A DNA stretch of 64,000 nt from Octopus vulgaris (taxonomy: Eukaryota), in contig OX597824.1 of NCBI GenBank assembly GCA_951406725.2, forward strand, positions 21,576,001 through 21,640,000, given 5' to 3'. The position numbers were made by a program, and so were the translations under genes. Of this stretch, positions 5,143-52,826 are shown piece by piece (the first letter of the stretch is position 1; the number at the start of each line of letters is the position of its first letter). Under the pieces are notes generated by a model. That model was given only the letters and a program-made list of their open reading frames with translations. It did no database searches and was not told the origin of the DNA.

Positions 5143-5202
5143 ATGATGAAAGAAGCTAGAAGTTCGATCATGAGTGGTTCATCGACTTTAAAGCCAGGAG
5201 AG
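5143..5202 (+). CDS. Internal coding exon of an unidentified gene (MMKEARSSIMSGSSTLKPGE)
   Basis: Acceptor ttttctaatccag|, donor GAG|gtaaga, 60 nt; only frame 0 is open. Upstream exons lie outside the window. Confidence 0.7.
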
Positions 5203-5718
5203 GTAAGACAACCATGCATCGACTGCAGTGCACTGAACTGATTTGAATCAGTGTATTGCAGCCCATGCTGTAGTCACCTCAGATGTAGTCTTGGAGGCTA
5301 TTTTTGTTTATAATTGACTTTATCTTTCACTTTACTCCCAAATTTTTTTAATTCCACGCATGAATTTCGGACATAGAGTGGAAGTTCAATTATAAACAAC
5401 TGTTTTTCTCCCAAGACCCCTAATAGAATGTAGAATTTATTAGAACCACTTTCCCTTGAAACAGGTACTTCTGTTATTCCTTGAATGATGATGAAAAAAA
5501 AAAGATCAATAAGATGGTGGTATAAAGGTGTGTGTAGTTGGTACAAAATGTCTTTGCCTTTATTTGAAAGCTGCTGAGTAAAACCAATTGAAAATATTTA
5601 GTGATGTTTAATTGATGTTTATTAACGTCACTTGAATAATGTTTGGAAGAGTACTACACATATCGTTGTTTGGAATGGGAAATGAAACAAAATACAGATT
5701 TAAAATACATTTTTTTTT

Positions 5719-6490
5719 TAAATTAGAAAATGAATAACTAAATATATTAATAAATAAACCAAATTTTAAAAGCATTCAAAAACAGAAAATTATCCTCATC
5801 TTAACGATGTATTTTGCTTTTTTATAGTGTTGAGATTTTTAAAGATTATTTTCAAAATGGTTTTGAGAGGAAAATGTCCTATATTTTAAAAAATTAAAGA
5901 TTTTTAATGTTTCCATGACTATTTCTTATTTCAAATTTCCTTCTATCTACAAAAAAAATATAAGTGTAATTCAAAACACCCATTATAAAAATATTCTAAG
6001 TATATATTTTTGTCTTCTCCTCACACATAAACCCTATTAAGGTGTTCAAATATATTTTTGGTTGAAATATACCTTTATGTATTTTTAAAGGGCTCTAAAA
6101 TTTTCTAAATTAGAAAATGAATAACTAAATATATTAATAAATAAACCAAATTTTAAAAGCACTCAAAAACAGAAAATTATCCTCATCTTAACGATGTATT
6201 TTGCTTTTTTATAGTGTTGAGATTTTTAAAGATTATTTTCAAAATGGTTTTGAGATTAAAATGTCCTATATTTTAAAAAATTAAAGATTTTTAATGTTTC
6301 CATGACTATTTCTTATTTCAAATTTCATTCTATCTACAAAAAAAAATATAAGTGTAATTCAAAACACCCATCATAAAAATATTCTAAGTATATATTTTTG
6401 TCTTCTCCTCACACATAAACCCTATTAAGGTGTTCAAATATATTTTTGGTTGAAATATACCTTTATGTATTTTTAAAGGGCTCTTAAATT
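5719..6490. repeat. Near-identical tandem duplication, period about 387 bp
   Basis: Copies start at 5719 and 6106 and differ by only a few substitutions. Confidence 0.9.
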
Positions 6491-6842
6491 TATATAATTT
6501 CTTTAAACTTTTGAACTGTTCATTTCAGTGGACTTTCAGAGGTTTTTTCCAGGTTCAATCAAACCTGGGTTGTGTACCCAATTCAAAAATTTCCCTTTTA
6601 TTTCAATGCTAACCATTTTTTATCCAATTCATAATTATTCATCTGCTATGCCCTTTTCTTTGTATGCTGTGGCATTAATATCTACAAAGAAACTGAAGTG
6701 TACAGACAGCAATTTCAGCATCCCTTTGTTGCACAGATGCCCTCAGAATCTTAGTGTCCAGCGATCAAATTCGTTGTAGAATTTCTTCTGGTAATCTCAT
6801 CCTAATCTTTTGAAACATGCCAGAAAAAATATAGATAGATAA

Positions 6843-7269
6843 GTGCAGGTATGACTGCGTGGTTAGAAGTTTTCTTCCCAACCACATAGTTCTGGGTTAA
6901 GTCCTGCTATGTGGCATCTTGGGCAAGTATCTTCTACTAAAGCATCAGACTGACCAATGCCTTGTTAATGGATTTTGGTAGATGGAAACTGAAAGAAACC
7001 TGTCGTGTGTGTGTGTGTCTGCATGCATGTGTGTGTGTGTGCGCATGTGTGTGTGTGTCTTTGTGTCTGTGTTTATACCCTACCACTGCTTGGCAACTAG
7101 TGTTGGTGTGTTTACATCCCTGTGACTTAGCAATAGAATAAGTGCCAGGCTTAAAATAACCAATATTGGAGTTGATTAGTTCAACTAAAATAACTAAAAT
7201 TCCTCAAGGTGGTGCCCCAGCATGGCCTCAGTCTAATGACTGAAACGAGTAAAAGATAGAATAAAAGAT
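6843..7269 (+). mobile_element. tRNA/CORE-type SINE (family A), diverged
   Basis: Colinear with the intact copy at 19667-20066: CTTGGGCAAG core, internal GT tract, GACTGAAAC..GTAAAAGA tail. Confidence 0.85.
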
Positions 7270-8067
7270 GCTGAACTGTTGGATACAAATATGTCCGTCA
7301 ATCTAAGCCCCCCCTTTTTTGAGTTTCCATATTTATATTGTCCATACCGTCAACTTTGTTAGTCCACCTTACTGAACAGAGGTAGCTTCAACATGTCTTT
7401 AACAGGAATTTTAAAGAACTGGCATTGCCATCTTTGGTGTTGGCAACAACACAATGTTGTCTTGCAAAGATAAAATTTAATGGGAATTCTAATGCATTCT
7501 AAACGATTTCTGTTTCACAGTCTCTATATATTCTCATATGACATTTTATAAAAAAACATATTAAATTTTTTCTTTTTATGGTAATCAACATATCATGTTA
7601 ATTAAGTTTTCATGCATTTAGTTAACTAACTTTAATTAATATATTTAACATAACTAACTTTTATTAACATATTTAGCATAAATTTTACTAACATAATTCT
7701 TAAAATACAATCACCATTATTTCAGTTCAAATACATTAAAAATTTTCAATTTTTTTAAAAGCATTTCTAAATTCTAACATAATTTTTCAACCTAATAAAA
7801 GGGTTAAAATTCAGATATCTAACTTCATTTCTTTAAAAAAATTCAATTAGCATCATATTAAATACAGAAAATTAATAATAATTTTAAAAAATTTTAAAAA
7901 AGGCTTCTCATAGAACTAACAATGGTTGGTAAAAATTGTCTCACAATTCCTAGATTTCAACAAAGTATGGTCGAATCTGTACTTGTTTCCTTTCTCTTGG
8001 CATGAGCATGCACTGTTTGAGCCTCACCTCATGTAGAAATCTTCTCATTTGTTTTATATATACATAC

Positions 8068-8135
<68 letters not shown>

Positions 8136-8208
8136 ATATATATATGTATGTATATATATATACATGTGTGTGTATATGCATATATACATATGTATATATA
8201 TTATATCA

Positions 8209-8243
<35 letters not shown>

Positions 8244-8397
8244 TGAGTCAATGCACTTTGCACATTGGCAGCTGTAAGTATGCCGACTGTTAATTTATGC
8301 TGTAGTTGTTTATTTTGTTCTTATATATTCTTTGATTTTCTTTTTTTTTTATCATTAATTCTCCTTCTTAATTAATTTTTTTTTAAATCATTGGCAG

Positions 8398-8399
8398 AG
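8398..8399 (+). other. Candidate 2-nt microexon (AG) or recursive splice site
   Basis: About 90-nt U-rich AG-free zone, then ggcag|AG|gtaagt. Confidence 0.3.
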
Positions 8400-8710
8400 G
8401 TAAGTTCTTTCAGAACGAAAATCTTAGCTAGAAATTATTTCTCTAGAATTTTCTTTTCTTTTTTTTTTCTTTTTTTTTTACAAATTTTTTAAAAAGATTT
8501 TTCAAGCAAATATATATATATATATATATTTTTTTTTTTCAACAAAATACTATTTTTTGATTATGAACTTTCTTCTTTCAATATTTTTTTTGAATGATTT
8601 TCTAAAAAATATTTATTGAAAATTTTTAGATGATGATGATGATGTTGATGATTTCAGTGATTTTTCTGATAATAATTGTGATGGTACTGATAATTATTTC
8701 TTACATTCAG

Positions 8711-8757
8711 ATGAAACGAAAAAATGTTCAGCTGTGATGTTCGTGGCTTTCCTATTG
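8711..8757 (+). CDS. Candidate alternative exon giving C-terminus MKRKNVQL* (stop 8735-8737)
   Basis: Acceptor ttatttcttacattcag|, donor TTG|gtatga. The stop is 20 nt before the junction. An in-frame upstream acceptor at 8629 is also possible. Confidence 0.5.
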
Positions 8758-8854
8758 GTATGAGCAATGAAAATTAGAGAGTTCCACTGAAAAGTAAACA
8801 AGGGACATTACTGCTTAATAGCTTGTCAACATCTGTTGATTTCAAAAGATTAGA

Positions 8855-9143
8855 TTCTGTTGTGTCTGGGGAGAGTCATTCTCTTTTTGTGCCTTATAAT
8901 GTAACACACTCACTGGTAAAATTTCCACTTATTTCTTATTTTTATTTTTCTAAAATTTTCGCTGCGTAGGTTGCAAGACGCAACGAAAATTTTAGGAAAA
9001 TAAAAATAAGAAATAAGTGGAAATTTTACCGGTGAGTGTGTTACATTATAAGGCACCAAAAGAGAATGAATCTCTCCAAACACAACAGAATATGCTTCAA
9101 CACACGAACTCATATAAAGAATCTTGAAAACCAAATCCCAAAA
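8855..9143. mobile_element. Asymmetric fold-back retroelement with 12-bp TSD
   Basis: Inverted arms of about 112 nt plus about 55 nt of unpaired tail; CAAAAGATTAGA at 8843-8854 and 9144-9155. Confidence 0.75.
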
Positions 9144-9351
9144 CAAAAGATTAGAGAAATTTAGTCAAAACCTGCACCAAAATGATATCTCACCATATTT
9201 AATTATATCTTACTATGTTCTGGGTTTGATTTTGTTTTAATGTTTATTTTGACTTTGGTCAAAATTTGGTCACCTGTCATACCATAAAAATAATTCCTAA
9301 AAACACAGGCGGAAGCATGGCTGTGTGGTAAGAAGTTTGGTTGCCGACCAC

Positions 9352-9853
9352 ATAATAATATAATAATAATGAAATTATTGTATACAGTGCTCAGGTGCAC
9401 CACAACTTGTCAAAAGTGCGTATAAAGCATATGCAGTAATGTACAAATGTCTGGAAAGTGAACAGTGTATGAGTCAGATACATGCTTGTGTGTGTATGAA
9501 GGGGAGAAAATCAGATGTAGTGTTGGCAAATCTCAGGAAGCATGGAAGTTTTGAAGGATGCAGTGCTCCGACAACTAACAACTGATGCCGGCAGTTTGTT
9601 CCATGCTTCAGCAACTCTTAGCGTGAAAAAATGTTTCCGAAAGTCATAGGAGCTGTGCTATTTTCTGACTTTGTAAACATGTCCACGGGTGTTAGACAGG
9701 TGGAGTTTGAAAAGGTGCTCGGAGTTATTGTTAATAAGATGATTAATAATTTTATGGGTGTCTGCCAAGTCAGCTGCCAGACGTGGGAGTTTCAATGTAT
9801 CCATGCCCAGGGAAGTAAGGCGTTCAGAATATGGTAAAAGTCTGATGGAGAGT
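9352..9853 (-). mobile_element. CR1-clade LINE, 5'-truncated 3' end
   Basis: Minus-strand translation LPYSERLTSLG..DL..HKII..TRGHVYK..FFTLRVAEAWNKLPASVV..SFK (one in-frame stop), then 3' UTR and (ATT)n tail. Confidence 0.88.
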
Positions 9854-9968
9854 ATTCTCTTAATAGCTTGTTAACATCTGCTGATTTCTTACATTACCAA
9901 ACGATTAGAGAATTAAGTCAAAACCAACACCAAAAAGATATCTCTCTGTGTTTAATTATATCTTACTA

Positions 9969-11039
9969 CTAGTAGTATCACCTGGTGTTACTTGAGTTTG
10001 TTTCGACCCTTTAGAATTGGAATGTTTGAAAAGTAAAAATTTTGCATTATGCAACTTGTTATTCTCTTCAAGTGAACATTTTTCCAGTTGAAATACACCG
10101 GAAAATGGTGACACAGCAGTCAAAAATTGTAAAAAATAGGGATTTTCATAGAAAAAAAGCATCTTTTTTATGTAAATAATTTTTGGTGTTAACATGGTCC
10201 GATTTGAATTTTATCTTCTACAGAATGAAGAGCATACTCTTCTATCATACTCTCAATTTTGGTCAACTTGTGCTGTAGGGTCTCGAAGGAGATAGTGTTA
10301 GTTGAAGGCTACCAAACCTGCCACACACAGACAACTTCAGCTTTATATATATTGATTTGCTACACACTACTTTCCATCCTTAATAATGAAACTTGGTAGA
10401 TCCAAAAGTTAAACACACAGACACGCACAAAGATACACAGACAGGCACACAAGTTGAGTTTTATATATATAGATTTCTCAACGGGGATTTCAGGGGAGAG
10501 TTTCAGGGAGTCACTGGCAATGTATCGTGATGATCAAAAATCCAGCCTGCTAAAATTTGGTTAAAGTGATTCAAACTGCAGACTCAACGCAAAATGGTCA
10601 CATTTAATTCAAAGTGTTAAAAATGTTATGAAAACAATTGGTATGTGTTCACAAAGTCCAAACGATTAATACGAAAAAGCCCTCTAGGCTACATCCTGAA
10701 AATTCATTTCTTTGCCGAATTTCTACAATATTTATGGCGATTCGTTTTTATATCTTGATTTTTTATTTTTTATGCAATTTACGCATTCTTGCACGCGTGG
10801 TGGACACAGTTCACGTCAAACAGCTGACTGAGTAAAGTTCACTATTCAATGCATGAGATAAGGCCTAAACAAACACATTATGAACTTCAGAACAGAAATA
10901 GCGCAGTTCAATTTTCATTCGCCTAAACATTAAGTGACCCATTTTTGGTGGTTCTACAATTTGTTGGCTAGGAGGAGATGTGCCGGGAAGTTAAACACAC
11001 AGATTCACAAACACACAAGTTGAGTTTTATATATATAGA
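9969..11039 (-). mobile_element. Composite Helitron: one 3' end, three 5' ends
   Basis: CTAG end at 9969; 5'-end motifs near 10355, 10473 and 11039; the paralogous empty site is A9215|T9216. Confidence 0.8.
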
Positions 11040-11131
11040 TGTTCTGGGTTTGATATTGTATTAATGTTGATTTTGACTTTGGTCAAAATTTGGTCACCTG
11101 CCATGCCATAAAAATAATTCCTTGAAACACA

Positions 11132-11501
11132 GGCACAAGCATGGCTGTGTGGTAAGAAGTTTGCTTGCCGACCACATGGTTCTGGGTTCAGTCCCACTGC
11201 ATGACACCTTGGACAAGTGTCTTCTACTATAGCCTCAGGCTGACCAAAGCCTTGTGAGTGGATTTGGTAGACAGAAACTGAAAGAAGCTTGTCGTGTGTG
11301 TGTGTTTTTATGTCTGTGTTTGTCCCCCATCGTCACTTGCACTTGACAACTGGTGTTGGTGTGTTTATGTCCCCATAACTTAGCGGTTTCAGCAAAAGAG
11401 CCTGTTAGAATTAGTACCAGGCATAATAAAATTAAGTTCTGGGGGTCAATTCATTCAACTAAAAATTCTTCAAGCGGGTGCCCCAGCATGGCCTCAGTCT
11501 G
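11132..11501 (+). mobile_element. SINE family A
   Basis: Colinear with 19667-20066; the 3' end is clipped. Confidence 0.88.
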
Positions 11502-11780
11502 TAGCTGCGGGTGAAATACCACTAAGCATTTCATCCGGCATGCTAACAATTCTGCCAGCTCGCCACCTTAATAATAATAATAGTAATAATAATTTTGAAG
11601 GAAGGGGCTAGTCAATTATATTGACCCTCAGTACATGACTGATACTTAATTCATCAACCCTGAAAGGATGAAAGACAAGGTTGACCTTGACAGTTTTTGG
11701 ATATAGAATGTAAAGAACTGGAAGGAATACCACAAAGCATTTTTTCTTTCTCAGTGCTCTAACAATCTTGCATGCTAACT

Positions 11781-12176
11781 GGCGTAGGAGTGGCTGTGTG
11801 GTAAGTAGCTTGCTTACCAACCACATGATCCCAGGTTCAGTCCCACTGCATGGCACCTTGGGCAAGTGCCTTCTACTATAGCCTCGGGTTAAACCAAAGC
11901 CTTGTGAGTGGATTTGGTAGACGGAAACTGAAAGAAGCCCCGTCATATATGTATGTGTGTGTATATGTTTGTGTGTCTGTTTGTTCCCCCCAACATCACT
12001 TGACAACTGATGCTGGTGTGTTTACGTCTCCGGAACTTAGCGGTTCGGCATAAGAGACCAATAGAATAAGTATGAGGCGTACAAAGAATAAGTCCCGGGG
12101 TCGATTTGCTCGACTATAAAGGTGGTGCTCCAGCATGGCTGCAGTCAATTGACTGGAACAAAGTAAAAGAGAGAGA
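11781..12176 (+). mobile_element. SINE family A, full length
   Basis: GGCGTAGGAGTGGCTGTGTGG head through GTAAAAGAG tail. Confidence 0.9.
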
Positions 12177-12915
12177 GTAACTGCCTTAACCTCAACAGCA
12201 ACAATAACCATAATAATTAACAACAACACTAATTTCTTTATTGGCCACAAGGGCCTTAACATGCAATACAAACATCATACAAAGGGAGTTACAAAATTTG
12301 TATAGAATGTACAGCATCATCATCTTCATCATCATCATCATTGTCATCATTATCATCATCATCATCATCATTTTCATTTTCACATATATGATAAGCAGTG
12401 GCAGGTTGCAAGAACTGAGTATAGAATATTTAAAACAGGTTAAAAGAGATGTTAGAATCTGTCACCTTGACAGGATTAGAACACCTTACAGCCTGATCAC
12501 CTTCAGTTATAGATAGTTTCTGCCCATTCCCACCCAAAACTTGGTTATCCAAATTCAGACATGTGCATCTCTGCTTTAGGAATGCTGAGGAAAGCGTTCC
12601 TTTAGCTCTACATAGACTGTTGGTGCAGTTTTCCTCAGTAACCTGTCACTTTAGGGTACTTGGTATTTGTCCAAGAACTGTGAATTTCATGAACTTCAAG
12701 GGAAATGGGACTCTTTTGTCATGAGGGGCTCTCAGCATCATCTTGCCTTCTGTCTTAGCTCATTCTGCCACTTCTCTCCCTTTTTATTCTTTCCAATGTC
12801 TTCTCATTTTTCTCATGGAAACCATCTCTTCATCATCCTTTTGAGGCAGTGATGACAGAGATTATGACATATGTGGGAATGTACACACATAGTTATATAA
12901 AAAAAGTTATATTAA

Positions 12916-13136
12916 CCCTTTAGCATTTAAACCGGCCATATCCGGCCAAAAGTATTCTGCCTGTTCTATGGTCAAACTGGCCAGATCTGGTCTCTCACAC
13001 CAACCCTACAATATCGTTTTAAAAATGAACAGCTACCTCATCAAAATCTCATAGCTACAAGATAATGCACGATTAGTTCAAAACAATGTGGATAAAAAAG
13101 AATTAGTTTTGGCAGAATAATGTGAACACTAAAGGG
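12916..13136. mobile_element. piggyBac-type MITE
   Basis: TTAA|CCCTTTAG ... CTAAAGGG|TTAA. Confidence 0.85.
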
Positions 13137-13150
13137 TTAAGTATATAAGT

Positions 13151-13534
13151 CGTGGCACTCTATCGGTTACGATGACGAGGGTTCCAGTTGATCCAATCAA
13201 CAGAACAGCCTGCTTGTGAAATCAAGGTGTAAGTGGCTGAGCACTTCCACAGACACGTGTACCCTTAATGTAATTCTCGGGGAGATTCAGCATGATACAG
13301 TGTGTAACAAGGCTGGCCCTTTGAAATACATGTACTACAGAAACAGGAAGAAAGGCTGAGAGAAAGTTGTGATGAAAGAATACAGTAGGGTTCGCCACCA
13401 CGCCCTGCTGGAGTTTCATGGAGCTTTGGGTGTTTTCGTTCAATAAACACTCACAACACTCGGTCTGGGGATCGAAACTGCAATCCCACGACTGTGAGTC
13501 CACTGCCCTAACCACTGGGCCATTGTGCCTCCAC
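13151..13534 (-). mobile_element. tRNA-derived SINE (family B2) with TSD
   Basis: Reverse complement of 13758-14144; TSD AGTATATAAGT at 13140-13150 and 13535-13545. Confidence 0.9.
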
Positions 13535-13757
13535 AGTATATAAGTATATAAAAGTATATGAAGTATATTAAGATGCTAAGAATTGACAGTCAAGTATTTT
13601 AAAGTTAACAAGGCTGACTTCTTCAGGACATGTGTAGAGAGCATTCTTCTCTATAAGAGATGAAACCTGGACTATAAAGGAAGTACTTTACGATTGCCTT
13701 GATGGCATCAAAGAAGAAATTTATGGACACATTCTATCCTATCTTTACTATTGTTGT

Positions 13758-14144
13758 GTGGAGGCGCAATGGCCCAGTGGTTAGGGCAGCGGACTCGCAG
13801 TCGTAGGATCGCGGTTTCGATTCCCAGACCGGGCGTTGTGAGTGTTTATTGAGTGAAAACACCTAAAGCTCCATGAGGCTCCTGGCAGGGATTGGTGGTG
13901 ATCCCTGCTGTACTCTTTCACCACAACTTTCTCTCACTCTTACTTCCTGTTTCTGTTGTACCTGTATTTCAAAGGGCCGGCCTTGTCACTCTCTGTGTCA
14001 CGCTGAATATCCCCAAGAACTACGTTAAGGGTACACGTGTCTGTGGAGTGGTCAGTCACTTACACGTTAATTTCACGAGCAGGCTGTTCCGTTGATTCGG
14101 ATCAACCGGAACCCTCGTCGTCGTAACCGACGGAGTGCTTCCAA
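13758..14144 (+). mobile_element. tRNA-derived SINE (family B2) with TSD
   Basis: A box TGGCCCAGTGG, B box GGTTTCGATTCC; TSD ACTATTGTTGT at 13747-13757 and 14145-14155. Confidence 0.92.
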
Positions 14145-14423
14145 ACTATTGTTGTACAATGCAAGGTAAGCTTTGCTGACCTCATACTGGACACCTGGTC
14201 CTTTCAAATGTTATATTTCGGAAGCTTCTGCATTGTAACAGAAGATGAAGAATACTCGATTTCATTGGTCGTATTAGGAGAAACATGCAACATGAAATTG
14301 AGAATTTACAAATGCTAATGGAGGCAGAGGTTCCCAATGCAGTTTGAAATGCATTCCAGTTGTGGCTGCCCTTGAAGAAGAAGAAACAGTGGTAAATAAA
14401 CACAAATGAATACATTATATGAA

Positions 14424-14771
14424 TGGCCGTTGCCAGCGCCGCCCCGACTGGCCTCCGTGCCGATGGCACATAAAAGCACCATCCGTTCGTGGCCGTTGCC
14501 AGCCTCGCCTGGCCCCCATGCTGGTGGCACGTAAAAGCACCATCCGTTCGTGGCCGTTTGCCAGCACCGTCTGGCGCCTGTGCGGGTGGCACGTAAAAAG
14601 CACCCACTACACTTGCAGAGTGGTTGGCATTAGGAAGGGCATCCAGCCGTAGAAACACTGCCAGATCAGACTGGGCCTGATGCAGCCTTCTGGCTTTAGA
14701 GACCCCAGTTGAACCGTCCAACCCATGCTAGCATGGAAAACGGACGCTAAATGATGATGATGATGATGATG
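14424..14771 (+). mobile_element. SINE family D 3' part with (ATG)n tail and internal ~65-nt repeats
   Basis: GGAAGGGCATCCAGC..CCATGCTAGCATGGAAAA..(ATG)n. Reverse-strand copies at 43106-43531, 44131-44267, 44318-44496 and 48252-48500. Confidence 0.8.
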
Positions 14772-14843
14772 AATATAAATAAAAATGAGTAAGAAACCAC
14801 CACTTTAGGTTACCTAGGTTACCTCTTGATCCTGGTATTGGAA

Positions 14844-15148
14844 ATTGTTTTGTTGTTTGTTCCTTCTCGAGCCACGCCTGGCTCATAAGGGCTGGTTTCC
14901 TTGGAGTATAGGTTCTCCACCTGGATGGGACGCCGGTCCATCACAGGTGAGCTGTAAGATGTAGGAGGAAAGAGTGAGAGAAAGTTGTGGCGAAAGAGTC
15001 AACAGAAGTTCGGCATTAATTTCTGCCGGAACCGCATAGGGCTTAGATGTTTCACTCATAAACACACACATCACTCGGTCTGAGATTCGAACCCACGAGC
15101 CCTCGACTGCGAGTCTGCTGCTCTAACCACTAGGCCACGTGCCTCCAC
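14844..15148 (-). mobile_element. tRNA-derived SINE related to family B2
   Basis: Minus-strand head GGAGGCACGTGGCCTAGTGGTTAGAGC..GGTTCGAATC; TSD (C)TGGTATTGGAA on both sides. Confidence 0.88.
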
Positions 15149-16218
15149 TGGTATTGGAACTTAGGACTCTTGAAAGTGACTGTTAGTATTACATTCTCCG
15201 TACTAGGCTAGCTTTGAGTCCTAATGAAGACTCTGGGAAGCTCTCATTTGGTTCTTCTTCCTCCAGCCATTTGCTGTCAACTCTAAGGTCTGTGAATTAC
15301 ATGCCAGAAGAAGATGGAATTTTCTGATGTTTGTCTTTGATCTGGATCCACTCTTCTGCTTCTGGATGTCTTGTTTTGGGTTTTTGGCTGTCTCTGGTGG
15401 CTTTTTCAGTCCTTTACAGCCTCCATATCCTCTTCATTTTTGCAAGGTGACAGCTGGAGTGCACCCTGCAAACAATACTTTCTGGGGCCTTCAGATTTGT
15501 CTACTACATTCTTCCTCTGCTTTTCCAGCCCCTGTTTTTGTTGAAAGCCTTCATCTGGCTTTTACTGCCACTTATATGGCAACTAGGATTTTTGCTCTTC
15601 ATTGCTTTACTTTTTGCCTCCACAATGGACAGCTCCAGAATAGTCTTGTTGTCTTCAGGGGTCATGCAAGTCTCTATAGTCCCCTCCTGATGCCATGTTA
15701 TCTTGCATCACCTCTGCACTTGCTACTTACACAAAAGATATCAATAATCTTTCTAGTTCATTGCTTCATATATTTTGATACCAGCCTGTAGGCATTTGTG
15801 TGGGGCACCACTTTACCTGTCACTATCCTTGCCTTCAGTTCATCTTTGGTATTACAGCGAGTTCTGTTGGTGTAACTGATATTCTGGTGATTTAATGAGT
15901 TAGCTTTCTCATTAAATCATATTCACAAATTATTTGCATTAATTTGTGAATATATAAGTTTAAAATACTAATTTTTGCATACTGAAATTAATACTACATG
16001 AAGAAGTTTTCAAATCAGTTGTAATCATATGAAAGCCATTTGGAAAAAATAAATTATCACCTCTCCCACTTCCTGCCAGAAAAACATACAGATATAGAAA
16101 ATGTGCACCTCCAGGGTCTTTTTACTGCATCTAGCACTAAAGTACTTTGTGTCTTTAACATAACATGTCTATAAAGGAGTCTTTTCCTGGATGAACACTG
16201 GAGTTAGTGGGCGTTCTA

Positions 16219-16252
<34 letters not shown>

Positions 16253-16255
<3 letters not shown>

Positions 16256-16585
16256 GGCGCGTGGCTCAGTGGTTAGAGCGTCGAGCTTACGATCGTGAGG
16301 TTGTGAGCTCGAATCCCAGACCGGGCTGCGTGTTGTGTTCTTGAGCAAGACACTTTATTTCACGTTGCTCCAGTTCACTCAGCTGCAGAAATGAGTTGCG
16401 ACGTCACAGGTGCCAAGCTGTATCGGCCCTTGCCTTTCCCTTGAACAACATCGGTGACAGGGAGAGGGGAGGCCGGTATGCATGGGCGACTGCTGGTCTT
16501 CTATAAAACAACCTTGCCCAGACTTGTGCCTCAGATGGTAACTCTCTAGGTGCAAACCCATGGTCAGTGTCTGACTGAAGGGGGT

Positions 16586-16590
<5 letters not shown>
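16253..16590 (+). mobile_element. tRNA-derived SINE (family B) inside (TA)n
   Basis: GGCGCGTGGCTCAGTGGTTAGAGC head, CORE-like segment, flanked by (TA)n on both sides. Confidence 0.88.
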
Positions 16591-16620
<30 letters not shown>

Positions 16621-16621
<1 letters not shown>

Positions 16622-16783
16622 GCATAAGAATGGCTGTGTGGTAAGTAGCTTGCTTACGAACCATATAATTCTGGGTTCGGTCCCACTGCGTGGCACCTTG
16701 GGCAAGTGTCTTCTACTATAGCCTTGCACCGACCAAAGCCATGTGAGTGGATTTTGTAGACGGAAACTGAAAGAAGCCTGTCG

Positions 16784-16852
<69 letters not shown>

Positions 16853-17270
16853 GCGTAAGAATGGCTGTGTGGTAAGTAGCTTGCTTACGAACCAAAAAAT
16901 TCTGGGTTCAGTCCCACTGCGTGGCACCTTGGGCAAGTGTCTTCTAGTATAGCCTCAAGCCAACCAAAGCCATGTGAGTGGATTTGGTAGACAGAAACTG
17001 AAAGAAGCCCGTCGTATATATGTATATATATGTATGTATGTATGTGTGTGTGTATATGTTTGTGTGTCTGTGTTTGTCCCCACCCCCAACATCGCTTGAC
17101 AACCGATGCTGGTGTGTTTACGTCCCCGTAACTTAGCAGTTCGGTAAAAAAGAGACCGATAGAATAAGTACTAGGCTTCCAAAAAATAAGTCTTGGGGGT
17201 CGATTTGCTTGACTAAAGGCAATGCTGCAGCATGGCCACAGTCAAATGACTGAAACAAGTAAAAGAGTAA
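16621..17270 (+). mobile_element. SINE family A with tandemly duplicated 5' half
   Basis: Heads at 16621 and 16852 share private variants (AAGAATGG, TTACGAACC, AAAGCCATG). Confidence 0.85.
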
Positions 17271-17730
17271 ACAGTATAAGAACAGACATTAATATAAACA
17301 TTTTTATATATGTGTGGTGTGTGTGTATGTGTGTGAGTGCCTGTGCAAATGTGTACACCCCCACAACATACATACATACATACATATACATGTGCACCCG
17401 TATAAGCATACATGTCAGAGAACAACTCATACATACACAGCCAAAATGTTTCATATCAGTACTAATAGTATTTTAGTATTTGCTTCCAAATATGACTGAA
17501 GTGAAAGCACCTCCAAGCTGCAAGGTAATGTTACAAGCTACAAACATAATCACCAACCTATAGGAATGTTTTAATAAATTTCGTTTGATTTGTTTTTCTT
17601 TTCAAATATTTGTTACAATATTATGCGTGGAGATAATATGTCTGTTTACCTTTCAGCTTTGAAATGCAATCTTTTCTGTCTAATCAACACATTTTTCTTT
17701 CCTTATTTTTTTATACCTTTTATATTACAG

Positions 17731-17737
17731 CTTACAT
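17731..17737 (+). CDS. Candidate 7-nt frame-shifting microexon (CTTACAT)
   Basis: Branch-like CTAAT, long pyrimidine tract, tacag|CTTACAT|gtgagt. Confidence 0.55.
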
Positions 17738-17754
17738 GTGAGTGATCCAGTTAA

Positions 17755-17969
17755 CCCTTTCGTTACTGTATTTATTTTGAGATGCTCTGTGTTTCTTTCA
17801 ATTACTTTAAACATAACAAAGAATTTAGTAAAATAACTTAGCAATAATTAAGCTGGTGTTAGGAACATAAATTGTGACTAAGGTTTGGTGGAAGATTTTT
17901 ATTCAAAATTTATGAAAGCAAAACATTTGTACTACAGAGCCGGTTTCAGCCGGGTTGGTAACGAAAGGG
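17755..17969. mobile_element. piggyBac-type MITE
   Basis: TTAA|CCCTTTCGTTAC ... GTAACGAAAGGG|TTAA. Sister copy at 48966-49186; older relatives near 29870-30100, 30805-31020 and 32500-32712. Confidence 0.88.
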
Positions 17970-18084
17970 TTAATGTTTGGTTTCTTTGTGTTGCGACTTC
18001 TATTGCGTATTAGAGTCATCCATGCCTTTTATACTGTAGAATACTTGAATATCGTAATAGTATATTGTTTAGAAATAAACTGTA

Positions 18085-18447
18085 GGTGTAGGAGTGGCTG
18101 TGCGGTAAGTAGCTTGCTTACCAACCACCTGGTTCTGGGTTCAGTCCCACTGCGTGGCTTCTTGGGCAAGTGTCTTCTTCTATAGCCTCGGGCCAACCAA
18201 AGCCTTGTGAGTGGATTTGGTAAACGGAAACTGAAAGAAGCCTGTCATATATATGTATAGATATATATATTTGTGTGTGTATGTTTGTGCGTCTGTGTTT
18301 GTCTCCCCAACATCACTTGACAACCTTGATGCTGGTATAGAATAAGTAATGGGCTTACAAAGAATAAGTCCTGGAGACGATTTGCTTGACTAAAGGCGAT
18401 GCTCCAGCATGGCCGCAGTCAAATGACTGAAACAAGTAAAAGAGTAT
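18085..18447 (+). mobile_element. SINE family A with internal deletion
   Basis: Colinear with 19667-20066 but lacks about 45 nt. Confidence 0.88.
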
Positions 18448-18844
18448 AGAACAAGATAAGCTTTGGTTGCATGGTTAAGAAGTTGCTTTAAGGATCTCAT
18501 AGTTGGGACTTTGGTCCAGCTTAAGGATGCTGTCTGTTGATGTCCTCTGCTGTAGCTACAGCTTGACCAATACCATATCAGTGGAATATGGTTGATGGAA
18601 ACTAAAAGAAGCTTGTTGTACACATGCACAGATGGGTCTAGCTTCTTTTGAACTTGTCACTCCCTCGTGGCATACGCATGTGTAATTGTATATATATAAA
18701 CATACGTGTGTGTGTGTGTGTGTACTTGAGTGTCGTGTGTGTGTGTATAGTCACAATGAGGATATTTAAACCTCTTATTGGGATATTTTATCCTAGATAC
18801 ACTGGTTTAATATAATATCATATATATATATATATTTATATATA

Positions 18845-18880
<36 letters not shown>

Positions 18881-19278
18881 CGTAGGAGTGGCTGTGTGGG
18901 AAGTAGCTTGGTTACCAACCACATGATTCTGGGTTCAGTCCTACTGTGTGGCACCTTGGGCAAGTGTCTTCTACTATAGTCTCGGGCTGACCAAAGCCTT
19001 GTGAGTGGATTTGGTACATGGAAACTGAAAGAAGCCTGTCCTCTATATGTGTATATATATATATATATGTGTGTTTGTGTGTCTATGTTTATCCTCCCAA
19101 CATCGCTTGACAACTGATGCTGGTGTGTTTACGTCCCTGTAACTTAGCAGTTCGGCAAAAGAGACCAATAGAATAAGTACTAGGCTTACAAAGAATAAGT
19201 CCTGGGGGTCGATTTGCTCGACTAAAGGTGGTGCTCCAGCATGGCTACAGTCAAATAACTGAAACAAGTAAAAGAGTA
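18881..19278 (+). mobile_element. SINE family A
   Basis: Colinear with 19667-20066. Confidence 0.9.
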
Positions 19279-19280
19279 TG

Positions 19281-19314
<34 letters not shown>

Positions 19315-19666
19315 GTTAAAATATATACAAAAAAATACAGACAGGTAAAAGAACAACATAAAGGATGTATTAATTAGAGTGAAACACCTGCCTCAACAAA
19401 CCTTGTCCACCCCAGGTGAACATAGAAAAGTGGATGTTAAAATGAGGACAGTAACGATGTTACATTTAAGCCTGTCTCGAATTGTTTACAAAAAATTAAA
19501 AGTAACTAAAACTAAATATTAAAATTGTAATTCATTTGTTTCCTCTTCAGTTTTTCAGCCTCTGCCTCTTTGATGTATTCATGTATTTCTGTATATACTT
19601 GCATGTGCTGATGTGTGGCATATATGCAAATATGTGTGTTTGTATGAATTTCATATATATATAATA

Positions 19667-20066
19667 GGCGCAGGAGTGGCTGTGTGGTAAGTAGCTTGCT
19701 AACCAACCACATGGTTCCGGGTTCAGTCCCACTGCGTGGCATCTTGGGCAAGTGTCTTCTGCTATAGCCCCGGGCCGACCAATGCCTTGTGAGTGGATTT
19801 GGTAGACGGAAACTGAAAGAAGCCTGTCGTATATATGTATATATATATATATGTATGTGTGTTTGTGTGTCTGTGTTTGTCCCCCTAGCATTGCTTGACA
19901 ACCGATGCTGGTGTGTTTACGTCCCCGTCACTTAGCGGTTCGGCAAAAAGAGACCGATAGAATAAGTACTGGGCTTACAAAGAATAAGTCCCGGGGTCGA
20001 GTTGCTCGATTAAAGGCGGTGCTCCAGCATGGCCGCAGTCAAATGACTGAAACAAGTAAAAAGAGT
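19667..20066 (+). mobile_element. SINE family A, intact and CpG-rich (young)
   Basis: A-box-like TGGCTGTGTGG, B-box-like GGTTCAGTCC, CORE-like CTTGGGCAAGTGTCTT, internal (TA)/(GT) tract, 3' tail. Confidence 0.92.
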
Positions 20067-20087
20067 GAAAAAAAAAAGAGTATATAC

Positions 20088-20311
20088 ATAAATAAGATCG
20101 TTAATCTAAAAATAAAATAACGATTTTATCAAGTGGTCAGCATGGGAAAAAATAACCTTCAAAGGTAATAATTATTAAAATTATAAATTAGGGTATCTAC
20201 GAGATACCACCATGCTGAAAATAGCAGCCATGATCTGACAATTAAGGTGGTTTTAGAGTCAGATCATGGCTGCTATTTTCAGCATGGTGGTACCTCATAG
20301 ATACCCTAATT

Positions 20312-20320
<9 letters not shown>
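20088..20320. mobile_element. Asymmetric fold-back insert
   Basis: Arms 20177-20239 and 20258-20320 are near-perfect inverted repeats, with an unpaired extension on the left; abuts (TA)n. Confidence 0.65.
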
Positions 20321-20344
<24 letters not shown>

Positions 20345-20345
20345 G

Positions 20346-20607
20346 CTAGAGTGAGCACATGAATGTGAAACAAGGTGGAAAAAATAGTACTTGAATACCA
20401 GAGGTAGAGTAATATGCTTTATTCATAAAGCTGCAGAGACATCACAAAAGCTGTTACTCAGAGTTTCACATTCCCCTTCGTCAGACAGTTTTGGTTGAGA
20501 ATGGAACAAAAATAAGGTTCCCTTCTCAACCCAAACTGTCCGACAAACGGAAACTTAGAACTTTGATTAAGAGTTTTCGCGATGTCTTTGCAGCTTTATT
20601 AATAAAG
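20346..20607. mobile_element. Asymmetric fold-back insert with hammerhead core (Penelope-like terminal repeat)
   Basis: Diverged arms of about 85 nt; the left arm has an extra ~70 nt; flanked by (TA)n. Confidence 0.7.
20447..20492 (-). ncRNA. Type I hammerhead ribozyme motif (stem II damaged)
   Basis: Minus strand ctgt-CTGACGA-aggggaatgt-GAAAC-tctga-GTA-acag: stem I ctgt/acag, stem III ACTC/GAGT, GUA cleavage triplet. Confidence 0.6.
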
Positions 20608-20983
20608 TCCATACATATATATATGTGTGTGTGTGTGTTTTTATATATATATATATAAATACAAAATGGGACAAGAACGCAAAACATCCAGACAACTAGG
20701 TGATACAAAATGGGACAACAAAACATCCAGATAGACGATACAAGAATCACGGATGGGTCATTCGAAGCCTTTAATCTTCAGTCAAGAACCGGATCATCCT
20801 CATATATAAATATATATATATATCTGCATATATACATACATGTACAGTCATGCATTCAAAATTAATTGATCCACATATAAACATGCAAGTTATTTATTAT
20901 ACCGGATTTTTTTTTTTCTTTCTATAACTGAATTTTGATTTTGTGTTTTTTTTTTCTTTCTTTTTTTTTTTTTAAAAATACAG

Positions 20984-21085
20984 GCTTTTGACAAAGAAAG
21001 AAGAACTCCCAATCCACAAAGAAAGGACATGTTCCGAAAACGGTCTGTGACTACAGAACATACTGCCACCACAGAAAAGGTCTGA
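20984..21085 (+). CDS. Probable terminal coding exon AFDKERRTPNPQRKDMFRKRSVTTEHTATTEKV*
   Basis: Very long T tract then tacag|; in frame with exon 5143-5202; followed by UTR-like sequence and AATAAA at 21178. Confidence 0.7.
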   Translation, partial: AFDKERRTPNPQRKDMFRKRSVTTEHTATTEKV

Positions 21086-21477
21086 CTGAATGTACCAACC
21101 AAAATCCGCAACTACGAAAGGAAGAACCACACAGGGACAGTTGACTGACAAATGGTTGTGACAATTGCAACTGGTTTAATAAATCTATTGTGACTAAGAG
21201 ATGTCCAGACCTAATTGACCACCGCCACTATCTCCATCTTGTACTCCTACTCCTACTACTACTACTACTACTACTACTACAACTACTACTACAACTACTA
21301 CTACTACTATTGCTACACTGTTTCTATTACTAATAATATAATAATACTTTTGAAATAGCCAATCTGTCAAAAAATGAATTTTTTTGTCCTTATACTTGTG
21401 TGTTAAAAGAAGCCAAGAAAAATGTTTTATTATTTTATTGAGCGTTGACCAATTAGCATTTTATATATATGTATATA

Positions 21478-21536
<59 letters not shown>

Positions 21537-21781
21537 ATATATATACACACGCACATACATATATATGTATGTATATATATATGTAATATATATATATATA
21601 TATGATGCATGTATTTATGTACACATATATGTATATACACGTGTGTGTGTATATATATATATATGTATATATATGTAATATATATATGATGTGTGTATGT
21701 ATGTACATATATGTATATATATATATGTATGTCTATATGTATATGTTTGTGTACACACATACACACACACATATATATATG

Positions 21782-21826
<45 letters not shown>

Positions 21827-22800
21827 GTATATACACATATATATATGTATGTATATATATATGTAATACAAGTTAAATGTTTTCAGGGGCTGTGCCTTCA
21901 GTGATATTAACAATGGATAGATGCATGGAAGCAGCCTAATGGTATCTCATGTAGCACATATCTGTCAGTTGTTTTATTACATCTCATTTTTTTTTTGACT
22001 ATAATTCATTTCATTTCATTTTTTTAAATCACACTTGGCAAGTTTTTAATTTTTTTAAAATTTTATTAATTACATTTTAGTTTACTCGCAACCCTTCCTC
22101 TGGTTAGGAAATTAGTATCCTAGTTTTGCTAAAAAAAAAAAAGGCTCTTTCTTAGCTATCATCATTCCATTCTCACTAGAAAGATGTTAAGGCAAAAAAA
22201 AAAAAAAATCTGCTTTTCCTTTTTTTTTTTTTTCCTTCCAATAGTTAACCAGCCCATAAGTTGTCTCAAGAGTATTTTAATCAAAAAAGTCAAAAAATTC
22301 TGTACTCAGTCTGTCATGATAGTGAATCCATTTCTCTCATAATGTTGCTTTATGGTCAACTTAGTGAAAAATAACATGGCAGATGATTTCATTTTCGTTA
22401 TTTTCCACACGTTTAAGCTTTAATTTTCCCCCCTCCCCATTTAGTTTCATTTTTGAAGCTTTAGTTAAAAAAAAAAAAGAAAACTCCATTCACATTCTTT
22501 ATTTATCCTCATATATTCACCATTCAGAAAACTGTTTGAGAATATGATCTCAAATTTATATCTTAATTTTTAAGATTTTATTTAATTGATTAACTAATCA
22601 AAGATTTTTTTTGTTTTTTTGTCTTTGTTTTACTAGTTAGCTATAAGAGCACACGGTGCAGTCTTTGACAATTCTTTCTATCAGTTCCTCAGCTAGCTGC
22701 CATAAGAACATTTTTTATTATTTGTTAAGCACACTGTGAAAGTAAGAGAGCGAGAAAGATTCCTTGGAAGTATGTCTGCAACTAAAATTGTTTCTGTCAG

Positions 22801-22958
22801 CTACCCCGGGTGCTGCCAAATCAGACCACGATGTTCCCGTCCATACTGAAGTAGGCAGCCACAGCAGCAGCAGCAGTACCGATTCTTCTTCACATGCTCA
22901 CCATTATTACCTGATATTTTGTGGAGTTTTGTTATCCATATTGAATACAGGTATATGA
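22801..22958 (+). CDS. Candidate alternative exon with Ser-rich linker and hydrophobic tail
   Basis: actaa..tttctgtcag|; phase-1 frame is open (xTPGAAKSD...SSSHAHHYYLIFCGVLLSILNTGI*); possible donor CAG|gtatat at 22950. Confidence 0.3.
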
Positions 22959-23896
22959 TGGCTAACGTTTAACCGATTCTGTAAGATAAATATGTGAACA
23001 ACAGTGATACTTAAGAGAACAAACGATATGTCTGTACATAGTTCTCTCCCCCACCCCGCCTACACTTATGTGTGAAATGTTAGACAGCTTCACATTTTTT
23101 TTGACCAGAACGTTTTTTTTTCTTTTTTTGGTATTTTTAAACAGTTCACTGCTGGTCTTTTTTTTTTTTTTTTTTTCTTTAAAGGAATATAATATCTTGA
23201 TAAGTGGCACATAAAATTACTTACATCTCATATACAAAACTAAAAGCATGCAAAGAAATCTAAAATGTTCATCTTATCAAGTTAAAAAAAAAAAAAAATT
23301 TCACTGAAAGAAATCTTTTTCTTTCATTGAAGACAAATCTGCTAACACTCTTTTTATTTCATATATTTATTTTATTTATTTTCAATTTGTTTGCAACGTT
23401 CATTCGTGGAATTTTATTTTCCAATTTTTTTTCTTAAACTAATTAAAAATCACAGTTCTTCATTTATGGCTTTTTAAATTCTTTGACAGTGATCTCATTC
23501 CATTACAAAAACACAAAAAAAAAACCAACAAAAAAGCCTTTTACATATCATCTTTGATTTCTGTTGCCTAATTTATCCATTTAGCAGTGTCTCTTTTATA
23601 TGTTTTTTAAAAATTTTTTTTAATTGTAATTATTCGTTTCCTAGTTTTAATTATTTATTATTCATAAGCCATGGCTATCAAACTGATTAAATGTCTTGTA
23701 TGATGCCAAATACACGAACACACAAAAGCAAAAAATAAAAAAAATAAACAACAAATATTTATTATTTTATTTGTTTTTTTAAACCATTACAAACTATAGA
23801 AAACTAATTCCTAAGTATTTTGCTTAAATCCATTAATTTTCTTTTCTTCAGTTTTTTTCTGTTTTATTATTATTTTTATTATTATTATTAATGTTA

Positions 23897-41698: not shown

Positions 41699-41719
41699 TA
41701 TATATATATATACACATAC

Positions 41720-41770
<51 letters not shown>

Positions 41771-41781
41771 CATATATATAC

Positions 41782-41827
<46 letters not shown>

Positions 41828-42342: not shown

Positions 42343-42390
<48 letters not shown>

Positions 42391-46325: not shown

Positions 46326-46620
46326 GGCACAGGAGTGGCTGTGTGGTAAGAAGCTTGCTTCCCAACCACATGGTTCTGGGTTCAGTCCCACTGTGTGGCA
46401 CCTTGGGCAAGTGTCTTCTACTATAGCCTTAGGCTGACCAAAACCTTGTGAATGGATTTGGTGGATGGAAACTGAAAGAAGTCTGTCATACGGCAAAAAG
46501 AGACCGATAGAATAAGTACTAGGCTTACAGACAATAAATCCTGGGGTAGATTTCCTTGACTAAAGGTGGTGCTCCAGCATGGCCACAGTCAAATGACTGA
46601 AACAAGTAAAAGAGTAAAGA
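46326..46620 (+). mobile_element. SINE family A lacking the central microsatellite
   Basis: Head and tail are colinear with family A; the middle is deleted. Confidence 0.85.
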
Positions 46621-46971
46621 ACTAAAAAATATTCATTAATATTTATGTGTGGAGAAAACCAAGGCGATAAGATGAATGAATATATAATTTTTATTTGGAA
46701 CTGGCAATGTTATAACTATTATTATTATTATTATTATTATTGTTATAAATTTGTGTTTACATCAGCTCTTAGTGTTATTTACCAAATTATCCAAACAAGG
46801 AGCTCTTTGAGAATCTGAGTGTTGTTTGTAAGATTGGAATAAATTCAACAAAGATACAAAGTAAATATTTGGAGAATTACCAAAATATTTCTATTAAGAG
46901 TTTGTTGTGCTTGTATGGTATGATGCTATGTATGTATGTATGTATATTAATATATATATATAGAGAGAGAG

Positions 46972-47002
<31 letters not shown>

Positions 47003-48521
47003 GAGGGTGAGAGAGAGAAATATATATATATACAAGGAGACAGAAAGAGAAACACATACACATACTCACACACACACTCATATATGCATGTATATTTCAC
47101 ACGTATATTTAACTATATACACGTGTGTGAGTTTATATATGTATGCATATTTGTATATATATGTATGCACACACACACACATATATATATATATATTTGC
47201 ATACATACAAATGTATTGTTTGTTTGTTGGCAAGATAACCAAAAAAGTAATCAATCCAGTGGGAGAAAATATATCATTTAATGAATACAAAAGTTTTACG
47301 TGAGCTACTTCAAGTTTCATGTTCAGATAATGTAATAAACAGATGGGTTTGAGTAGCATTTCACGCATGATAGGCAGATCTTGAAATGGTAAGCTATACA
47401 AACCCATCTGAACACACATATATATATGTGTGTGTATGTATATATATAAAGAAAGAAGACAAATGAGTTGGGGTTTACTACAGCTGTTTCAGGTGCATTT
47501 GTTATAGATGAATAAACCAATTACATCATGATAAAACCACTCACATACAAGTATGAGCTTGTGGCTTGTGCCACATTGTTGGTAATAGTTCAATCTTTAT
47601 GTAGTTTCAGGTAGACTTAAGCACCTTTTTGGCCCTACTTTCCTTGACCTTGTGGAACATTTAGGATTTGACAGTTCTGAAAGAGAATGCTGCACCAGCA
47701 ATTGGCTGGTATTCATTTTCAGGCTGAGTAGAGATGAGCAGTGTGAACTGAAGACTTGCATGTGACACCAGGTCCAGGAATTGAGCCCTTTATCTCATGA
47801 CCACGAGACCAACACACTTAACCATTAGGCCACATGCAAACACACACATTATATATATATATATATATGTGTGTGTATTACATAAATATATATATATATA
47901 TATACATATATACATATATCTGTGTGTTTGTATATATATATATATATATATACATATGCATCCTCATAATTATTGTTATCATTGTAACATCCCCTTTTCC
48001 ATGCTTGCATGGGTCAGGCAAAATTCCTTGAGGCAGATTCTCTATGGTTAGATGCCCCTTCTGTTGCCAGCCCTCACTTCTTTCCAAGCAAGTTAATATC
48101 TTCCTATTTCCTGACATGTTCTCACTGGCCATTGGAAATAAATAACGCAGCTCGTATGACTGATCTTCCTTTAAAACTAATATGTGATGTCAGGATAAGG
48201 AAGCATACACACACACATGCCCACATACACACACACACACACACACATATATATCATCATCATTGTTTAACGTTCGTTTTTCATGCTAGCATGGGTTGGA
48301 CGGTTCAACCATGGTCTGGGAAGCCAGGAGGTTGCACCAGGCTCCATGAGTGTAGTGGGTGGTTTTTATGTGCCACCGGCACAGAAGCCAGTCATAGTAG
48401 TGCTGGCATTGGCCACGTTCAGATGGTGCTTTTTACTTGCCACTGGCACAGGTATCACAACTACAATTTCCATTTGATATTTATTTTGATGTTGATGTTG
48501 ATGTACTTGACTCAATAGGTC

Positions 48522-48559
<38 letters not shown>

Positions 48560-51419: not shown

Positions 51420-51460
<41 letters not shown>

Positions 51461-51467
<7 letters not shown>

Positions 51468-51706
51468 ATAAGGGTAGAAATTGATATTAATCAATTAAAA
51501 CCAGTGGCCTAGCATATTTTTAAAAAATCCGAAGATTAAAAATTGCTTTACATACAAAATTTAGAGGACTGACCACTAAAAATGGACAGCCTATATGCTA
51601 GATATAGATGTCAAAATCACCATTTTCCACGAATTTGACGTCTATATCTAGTATATAGGCTGTCCATTTTTTTTGTGGTCAATCCTCTAAATTTTGTAAG
51701 TAAAAA
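51461..51706. mobile_element. Asymmetric fold-back insert in (TA)n
   Basis: Arms at about 51547-51618 and 51632-51704; a related single-arm copy lies at about 24580-24720. Confidence 0.7.
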
Positions 51707-52084
51707 AATTATATATATATATATATATGTGTGTATGTATGTATGTATGTATGTATGTATGTATGTATGTATGTATGTATGTATATTTGTGTATCACTAA
51801 TTATCAAAAACTGATTTATAATGACAATTTGGCAAGCTCATTAATATTCTATCACAGAAGAGTTGATATTAAAAGCAGGAATGTAATATATGATAATGAC
51901 AGTAATTATGATTATTATAATTATTACTCTGATTAACATCATCTAGTTGTTTTTCTATTTTCTAATGAAAATAGACATTTCTTATAAAACTAACACCTTA
52001 GGATGAAATGAGAAAACATCACCATTTAAATAGCTGTGTTCATTCTAAATTATCATAACATCAAAACAGAAATGTATTAATATC

Positions 52085-52137
<53 letters not shown>

Positions 52138-52809
52138 CTTTAGGAGATTTGTAGTTATATATTTATTGGGACTATATAACCAAATAGTTAAGAAGTTCTC
52201 TTCATAACCAGAAGCTCTAAGGTTTGAACTCACTCTTTAACATCATGGGCAAATATAATTTTTTTTTATAGCCTTGGTTTGACCGATACCTTGTGAGTGA
52301 AACCAGGTAAATGGAAACTGTACAGAAACCTGCCTAGTGGATTGTACAGCCTTGTCACACACTGTGTCATGCTGTTCCTACTTCAGAATTACATTAAAGG
52401 TACAGGTACAGGTATGTACCTGTGGAATGCTTATTCACGTATATGTTGATTCAGATAGAGGTAATTCAATTAAGCAATGGAAATCTGTTACCATCACCAC
52501 CAATACCATCACCACCACCATAACCTCAGTTATATATTTGTTACATGTATAATTGTAGTGAACAAATGAATTTATTGTCAGTAATTAGTAATTACGAAGA
52601 TATTGTTAAGGTGAACATAGGTAGCTCTGAAACTTACTTGCAATGTTTTATTTAAAATAGATTTTCTAGTTAAACACATTTCAAAGTGAACCATACTTAA
52701 ATAGATTAAATATACACCTCTTCAACATCCAACAAATTAAAAAGTAAAAGAAAATTGACTGATCTTTAATGCTTATATATTTTTATTTTCACTTATTATT
52801 TGTTTTCAG

Positions 52810-52826
52810 TTTGTACTGAACTGTAA
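52810..52826 (+). CDS. Candidate distal terminal exon, coding part xCTEL* in phase 1
   Basis: Long AG-free U-rich tract ending tgttttcag|TT TGT ACT GAA CTG TAA, followed by kilobases of UTR-like sequence. Confidence 0.5.

Follow-up and report, generated by a model that had tools for sequence, protein, structure and literature searches.

A 64,000-nucleotide stretch of Octopus vulgaris DNA (contig OX597824.1; G000:C11:21576001-21640000), called the window below, was analysed at the 3' end of octopus BRSK/SAD-1, a nerve-cell kinase gene. In the reading that we consider fairly probable, two duplicated exons and an alternative donor vary a spacer in front of one Glu-Lys-Val (E-K-V) terminus, read-through into the last intron likely removes this terminus, and neurabin is its likely partner. 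The variation that has support consists of the optional tandem duplicate exons, a 6-nt alternative donor, a read-through tail, and one cuttlefish-like tail. A first-pass annotation of this DNA had proposed a gene end with an alternatively processed tail of the PDZ type; this proposal was borne out, with E-K-V as the real terminus. The duplicated cassette exon 10.5 kb upstream, the 6-nt donor, and the intron read-through tail had been overlooked there.

Gene identity and the terminal coding exon

An exon scan covering 200 kb upstream of the window gave kinase-domain exons. One upstream exon was 100% identical to Octopus BRSK2-like/SAD-1-like proteins and 96% identical to Acanthosepion BRSK. Residues 26-758 of O. 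sinensis BRSK2-like X1 (P0025, 758 aa) mapped onto the locus through 22 GT-AG junctions, the last of which joins 5202 to 20984. A Pfam profile search of P0025 gave a kinase domain above the cut-off (Pkinase, 257.8 bits), a BRSK-type UBA domain (UBA_BRSK, PF21115, 90 bits; cut-off 27), and a BRSK-type KA1 domain (KA1_BRSK, PF21122, 117 bits; cut-off 27). The gene is octopus BRSK/SAD-1, and its exon chain and reading frame are fixed. From the mapping and the domains, the stretch 5143-52826 therefore comprises the last intron, the last exon, and the downstream DNA of this gene. The supported features are as follows.

5143-5202, plus strand: 60-nt phase-0 cassette exon (MMKEARSSIMSGSSTLKPGE), the second of two tandem duplicates; supported by mapping, isoforms, and contigs.
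5203-5241, plus strand: intron read-through tail (VRQPCIDCSALN, then stop) whose end is not of the PDZ type; AATAAA first occurs at 5749; seen in 8/34 proteins and in the X11 contig 5174-5520.
20984-21085, plus strand: true terminal coding exon (AFDKERR..TTEKV, then stop), identical in Octopus, Argonauta, and Acanthosepion proteins; acceptor score 11.7.
21086-23750, plus strand: probable 3' untranslated region, T-rich and with no interspersed repeat detected; AATAAA at 21178, 23734, and 23743.

Exon 5143-5202 has AG and GT flanks and is open in frame 0 only. Frame 0 had been assumed by the first-pass annotation, which named this point as refutable. The assumption held: the upstream exon ends in phase 0, and the NCBI isoforms containing MMKEARSS..KPGE agree with it. 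Use of the exon in another phase was ruled out on the same two grounds.

Four sequencing runs, taken as RNA by guess, were aligned to 4900-5700. The RNA evidence covers this interval only. Contigs, which drop rare variants, were obtained from X18 and X11; X1 and X4 gave none, which is no evidence either way. X18 gave one 111-nt contig running from the end of the upstream duplicate through exon 5143 into 20984 (30 + 60 + 21 nt). Given the 31-letter words and the 9-nt suffix shared by the duplicates, the shape of this contig would be that of the inclusion arm of a skipping bubble. X11 gave a 64-nt contig ending at 5203 and two contigs starting at 5174. Of these two, one continues into exon 20984 at depth 34.5, and the other runs through intron sequence as far as 5520 at depth 7.6. 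The loose ends of the X18 and X11 contigs match the start of exon 20984. Exons are joined in these contigs, so spliced RNA is implied.

The tails were compared among 34 cephalopod-type proteins (18 cluster representatives and 16 further members; the largest cluster has 21 members, 6 of which are not among them; unnamed Logan proteins were counted as cephalopod on 96% identity). TTEKV was found in 24, DCSALS in 7, and DCSALN, VSQLSF, and EKARSLTSEEVSGEEGI in 1 each. The DCSALS and DCSALN tails (8/34) are read-through after exon 5143, and VSQLSF (1/34) is read-through after the upstream duplicate. A further 137 relatives, mostly molluscs, were retrieved as redundant isoform sets, and 4 fragments were dropped. 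A D-x-V/L/M end was present in 125 of the remaining 133, and 82 of these ended in DKV.

P0005, a cuttlefish-like BRSK protein from Logan (5 contigs), carries a distinct tail ending in EGI after KPGE, which shows, at the level of sequence records, that a further end exists in the cuttlefish-like lineage. Reading the terminal exon in another frame does not yield this tail, as three residues at most are compatible. The sense strand was examined between -12797 and +100000 and revealed no octopus homologue of it. Optional internal coding stretches at window-relative -96958..-81081 and -26250..-26198, which are two exons before the UBA domain and one extension before KA1, occur in P0025 and not in P0005.

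Duplicated spacer exons, read-through, and the predicted ligand

The first copy of the duplicated exon lies outside the window, 10.5 kb upstream, at G000:C11:21570574-21570633 (IMKVARSTIMTTPSTLRPGE). The two copies are identical at 46 of 60 nt and have similar flanks. Annotated cephalopod isoforms contain both copies, either one, or neither. Mutually exclusive use was ruled out, since many proteins, and one contig of X18, contain the two together. The exon before exon 5143-5202 has two donors 6 nt apart, and the longer choice adds Val-Thr. A separate Val-Thr microexon was rejected because the donor simply lies 6 nt further on.

The duplicated 60-nt cassettes were seen in cephalopod BRSK proteins and were absent from the other molluscan proteins seen. 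They interrupt an acidic stretch, D/E-D/E-[AV]-F-[DE], that is contiguous in bivalves, a chiton, and nemerteans. As far as the proteins seen can show, the addition of these two Ser/Thr-rich spacer exons is apparently confined to coleoid cephalopods. A separate tandem duplication of about 360 bp, near-identical and spotted by eye, lies at ~5730-6490 in the last intron.

Isoforms with and without the terminal D/E-K-V are both present in protein records; the form without it is possibly unspliced RNA. The read-through tail may be an isoform made by intronic polyadenylation, or it may be unspliced RNA or DNA. P0185, a genomic open reading frame of another species from a short-protein search, has VRQLSIDPS after the first duplicate, and this resembles VRQPCIDCS after the second duplicate here (5203-5230). 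The opening ~25 bases of the intron may have stayed conserved from the time the exon was duplicated.

The protein records show optional use of each duplicate and a conserved end. Most likely, the kinase ends in one conserved E-K-V, which is predicted to be a PDZ ligand and is preceded by a spacer that varies in length (0, 20, or 40 residues, with or without Val-Thr). Read-through after either duplicate would remove the E-K-V ligand. The switch would be mainly PDZ binding on or off together with linker length, as in the long and short forms of worm SAD-1. The E-K-V terminus is predicted to bind the PDZ domain of neurabin, and a neurabin/spinophilin-like exon is present in the octopus genome (G000:C23). 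We infer PDZ binding, neurabin as the partner, and read-through as a mature isoform. In worms, a C-terminal cassette exon sets sad-1 isoforms apart in their binding of NAB-1/neurabin (PMC6641836), and polarity requires the SAD-1–NAB-1 interaction (PMC2564922). The neurabin PDZ domain binds a tail ending in MDI, and the available part of that source does not mention SAD (PMC12185105).

Candidate microexons and alternative last exons

Five tails after exon 5143 had been proposed by the first-pass annotation. Joined in silico, all five translate as claimed: ..KPGEAFDK..TTEKV, ..KPGEMKRKNVQL, ..KPGELTCF, ..KPGELTFCTEL, and ..KPGERLLT..SENGL, each followed by a stop. As splicing events, the join of 5202 to 20984 (..TTEKV) was supported by transcript and protein, and the other four by neither. 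The elements used by these four, and a repeat beside one of them, are as follows.

8398-8399, plus strand: candidate 2-nt microexon (CAG/AG/GTAAGT) whose inclusion would put the last exon in the frame ending ..SENGL (stop 21048-21050); acceptor 8.1, donor 11.8, AG-free zone of 90 nt.
8711-8737, plus strand: candidate alternative last exon or stop-bearing cassette (MKRKNVQL, then stop); acceptor 10.4, weak donor at 8757 (score 4.2).
17731-17737, plus strand: candidate 7-nt microexon (CTTACAT) that would give ..LTCF (stop 20989-20991); acceptor 8.4, donor 7.4, AG-free zone of 72 nt, CTAAT at -51.
17751-17973, strand not assigned: miniature inverted-repeat element, TTAA-flanked and with inverted ends of 12 bp; its first base is the 14th after the 7-nt candidate; multi-copy from 17749.
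52810-52826, plus strand: candidate distal last exon, which yields ..FCTEL only if the 7-nt exon precedes it and lies 31.7 kb beyond the TTEKV stop; acceptor 10.2, single copy.

No path from 5202 into any of the four candidates was present in the X11 or X18 graphs (2/2 informative runs), because X11 branches only after base 5203 (G), and the first base of the candidates is A for 8398 and 8711, C for 17731, and T for 52810. Ends in TCF, CTEL, VQL, or NGL were found in 0/185 proteins, including 0/34 of the cephalopod set. The proposed switching among class I, II, and III ligands by reading the last exon in three frames thus found no support in the proteins (0/34) or the informative runs (0/2). 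Two metagenome scans for cephalopod or mussel DNA gave no match.

The splice sites of the microexon candidates were scored with matrices trained on this gene's own sites, a small training set, against a background that may include real exons. At acceptor and donor scores of at least 6 and an AG-free zone of at least 40, the 15.8-kb last intron contained exactly two sites, 8398 and 17731, and the other 21 introns together contained one. At moderately strict settings, about 0.1 would be expected in the last intron, against the 2 sites present. Over 140 threshold sets, p was below 0.05 in 62% (median 0.025, range 4e-5 to 0.79), and loose settings were not significant. In 912 kb of background strand, 0 sites matched or beat both scores of the 2-nt candidate, and 5 did so for the 7-nt candidate. 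By summed score alone, the 7-nt candidate was matched by 29 background sites, or 0.5 expected per intron of this size. Given the small training set and this background, and because the window was picked from a large scan, the enrichment is a lead, not proof.

Typical neural microexons have TGC close to the acceptor, a length divisible by 3, and a long AG-free pyrimidine zone. Strong splice sites and such a zone were found at both 8398 and 17731. The nearest TGC motifs lie at -100 and -66, and the lengths of 2 and 7 are not divisible by 3. With the PDZ classes as coded here, the SENGL end matches none of classes I, II, and III.

Inclusion of the 7-nt exon, the 2-nt exon, or both in some neurons would make the last exon end in LTCF or SENGL, so that the PDZ ligand and the 33-residue tail would be exchanged or lost. 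This was judged unlikely. The two candidates lie in single-copy DNA, are the only sites in the intron at the settings above, and give frame shifts of +1 and +2 between them; the P0005 tail after KPGE indicates that this position varies in cephalopods. Against this stand the missing contig paths from 5202 to A, C, or T, the absence of such ends from the cephalopod proteins, the commonness of the 7-nt site by summed score, the transposon-like element 14 nt behind its donor, and TGC motifs 66 to 100 nt off rather than adjoining the acceptor. A PDZ-like end also arises by chance at about 1 in 4, and the finding was drawn from a very large scan. The candidates lack RNA support in the X11 and X18 contigs and protein support in the 34 cephalopod sequences, and are at most minor or cell-restricted. 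That at least one of them is really used is conceivable, if doubtful. It is distinctly unlikely that octopus neurons use both to read the terminal exon in three frames (E-K-V, T-C-F, and N-G-L), atop the two duplicated spacer exons, and so route one kinase among synaptic scaffolds.

Position 8398 could instead serve as a stepwise (recursive) splice point or a splicing decoy in the 15.8-kb intron, leaving the mRNA unchanged. Its strong acceptor directly adjoins a near-perfect donor, and such use would account for an above-background architecture that leaves no trace in contigs or proteins. Zero-length use needs a GAG acceptor, and the CAG 2 nt upstream should win by the usual rule. This explanation was considered very unlikely.

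The acceptors at 8711 and 52810 were compared with those around them. The 8711 acceptor ranked 6th of 38 in the last intron. The 52810 acceptor was tied 17th in 21083-64000, with at least 16 stronger. Among the 57 acceptors scoring at least 8 in 5203-64000, a loose PDZ-class end was obtained for 16 in phase 0 and for 13 when the 7-nt exon was placed in front; in antisense DNA, phase 0 gave such an end in 86/338, the same rate as sense. About one quarter of comparable acceptors give PDZ-like ends, so the selection of 8711 and 52810 is unremarkable. The PDZ matches on which the first-pass annotation had relied for these two tails equal chance expectation in this 57-acceptor test.

A full switchboard of five tails, including 8711 and 52810 and spanning PDZ classes I, II, and III, was judged extremely unlikely. 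Every translation is correct, the acceptors of 10.4 and 10.2 resemble the gene's real ones (leave-one-out range 0.2-16.0), ATTAAA at 52988 follows 52810 and AATAAA at 8999 follows 8711, and no other gene was found to own 52810. The selection at chance level speaks against it. No transcript or protein ending at 8711 or 52810 was found among the 185 proteins or on a contig path from exon 5143 (X11, X18). In addition, 52810 requires an unproven microexon and would have splicing bypass a strong terminal exon that is followed by more than one polyadenylation signal; it lies behind AATAAA at 21178, 23734, and 23743. The two sites are most likely cryptic.

The first-pass annotation had also considered that 52810 might belong to another gene. 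No obvious downstream gene was found by a simple exon finder over 243 kb, and 0/4 window candidates passed the Pfam cut-off, which is a weak negative. To that extent a neighbouring owner was not found; 52810 itself stayed unsupported. At 63601-63937 on the minus strand, a 112-aa open frame has no Pfam match; its sequence looks like a LINE reverse-transcriptase fragment. The 8711 acceptor region (8666-8736) weakly resembles both duplicates (4 and 2 of 367 acceptors score as high), and 8711 may be what is left of a third copy that has decayed.

Several points weigh against the reading of a variable spacer before one E-K-V ligand. Contigs came from just 2 of 4 runs, the tissues were not recorded, and rare forms were dropped. 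The junction contigs of X11 and X18 have 29 and 21 letters on the short side, and each thus misses the bridging rule of 31 on both sides. All 7 O. bimaculoides models seen end in read-through, which may reflect unspliced RNA or an assembly gap. The 133 relatives are redundant sets of isoforms and represent no more than a few dozen species. A D/E-x-hydrophobic end, as coded, was present in 0/25 distant representatives reaching the KA1 end; the tail is therefore not universal. The two microexon candidates are more splice-like than the background and are sited where frameshifts would escape decay. Exons shorter than 10 nt are often missed by gene-model pipelines.

Relation to known systems

The long form of worm SAD-1 ends in D-K-V, like the E-K-V of octopus. 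C. elegans sad-1, with its long and short forms (exon 15 cassette), belongs to the orthologous kinase family; there, splicing alters C-terminal sequence and length, and the isoforms differ in NAB-1/neurabin binding (PMC6641836, PMC2564922). The octopus gene differs in having two duplicated in-frame exons, a tandem donor, and read-through, whereas the worm has one tail-changing cassette. Vertebrate BRSK1/BRSK2 (SAD-B/SAD-A) share the kinase-UBA-KA1 layout and differ from each other mainly at the C-terminus (PMC6641836). The vertebrate-like sequences retrieved do not end in D/E-K-V. BRSK/SAD kinases are further characterised by an autoinhibitory stretch located between UBA and KA1.

The NCBI cephalopod BRSK2-like models (O. 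sinensis XP_036362962-969, O. bimaculoides XP_0528278xx, and Acanthosepion CAE12947xx) represent the same gene. They already hold exon 5143, its duplicate, the Val-Thr donor, the TTEKV exon, and the read-through tail; none of those seen has the 2-nt, 7-nt, 8711, or 52810 candidates. These models thus already document the gene, its duplicated exons, and both supported tails, and worm sad-1 is a known case of tail switching. No paper on cephalopod BRSK splicing was found in the literature search, and none on octopus microexons with SRRM or on 2-nt frameshifting C-terminal microexons.

Neural microexons recur across bilaterians, and BRSK is unmentioned in the available part of that source (10.64898/2026.09.05.749416). 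The octopus candidates resemble them in being very short, with long pyrimidine-rich AG-free acceptors and strong donors. They differ in being frame-shifting, without TGC by the acceptor and without junction evidence, and a length of 2 nt would be extreme even for a microexon.

Should the 2-nt and 7-nt exons prove genuine, the gene would offer an uncommon example of a last exon with three reading frames in use, together with an exon that ranks among the shortest in animals. Neuronal polarity and presynaptic assembly are controlled by SAD kinases, and whether the worm kinase binds neurabin depends on its spliced tail. The octopus gene retains a ligand of the ancestral type and is a modest case of exon duplication tuning a neural kinase.

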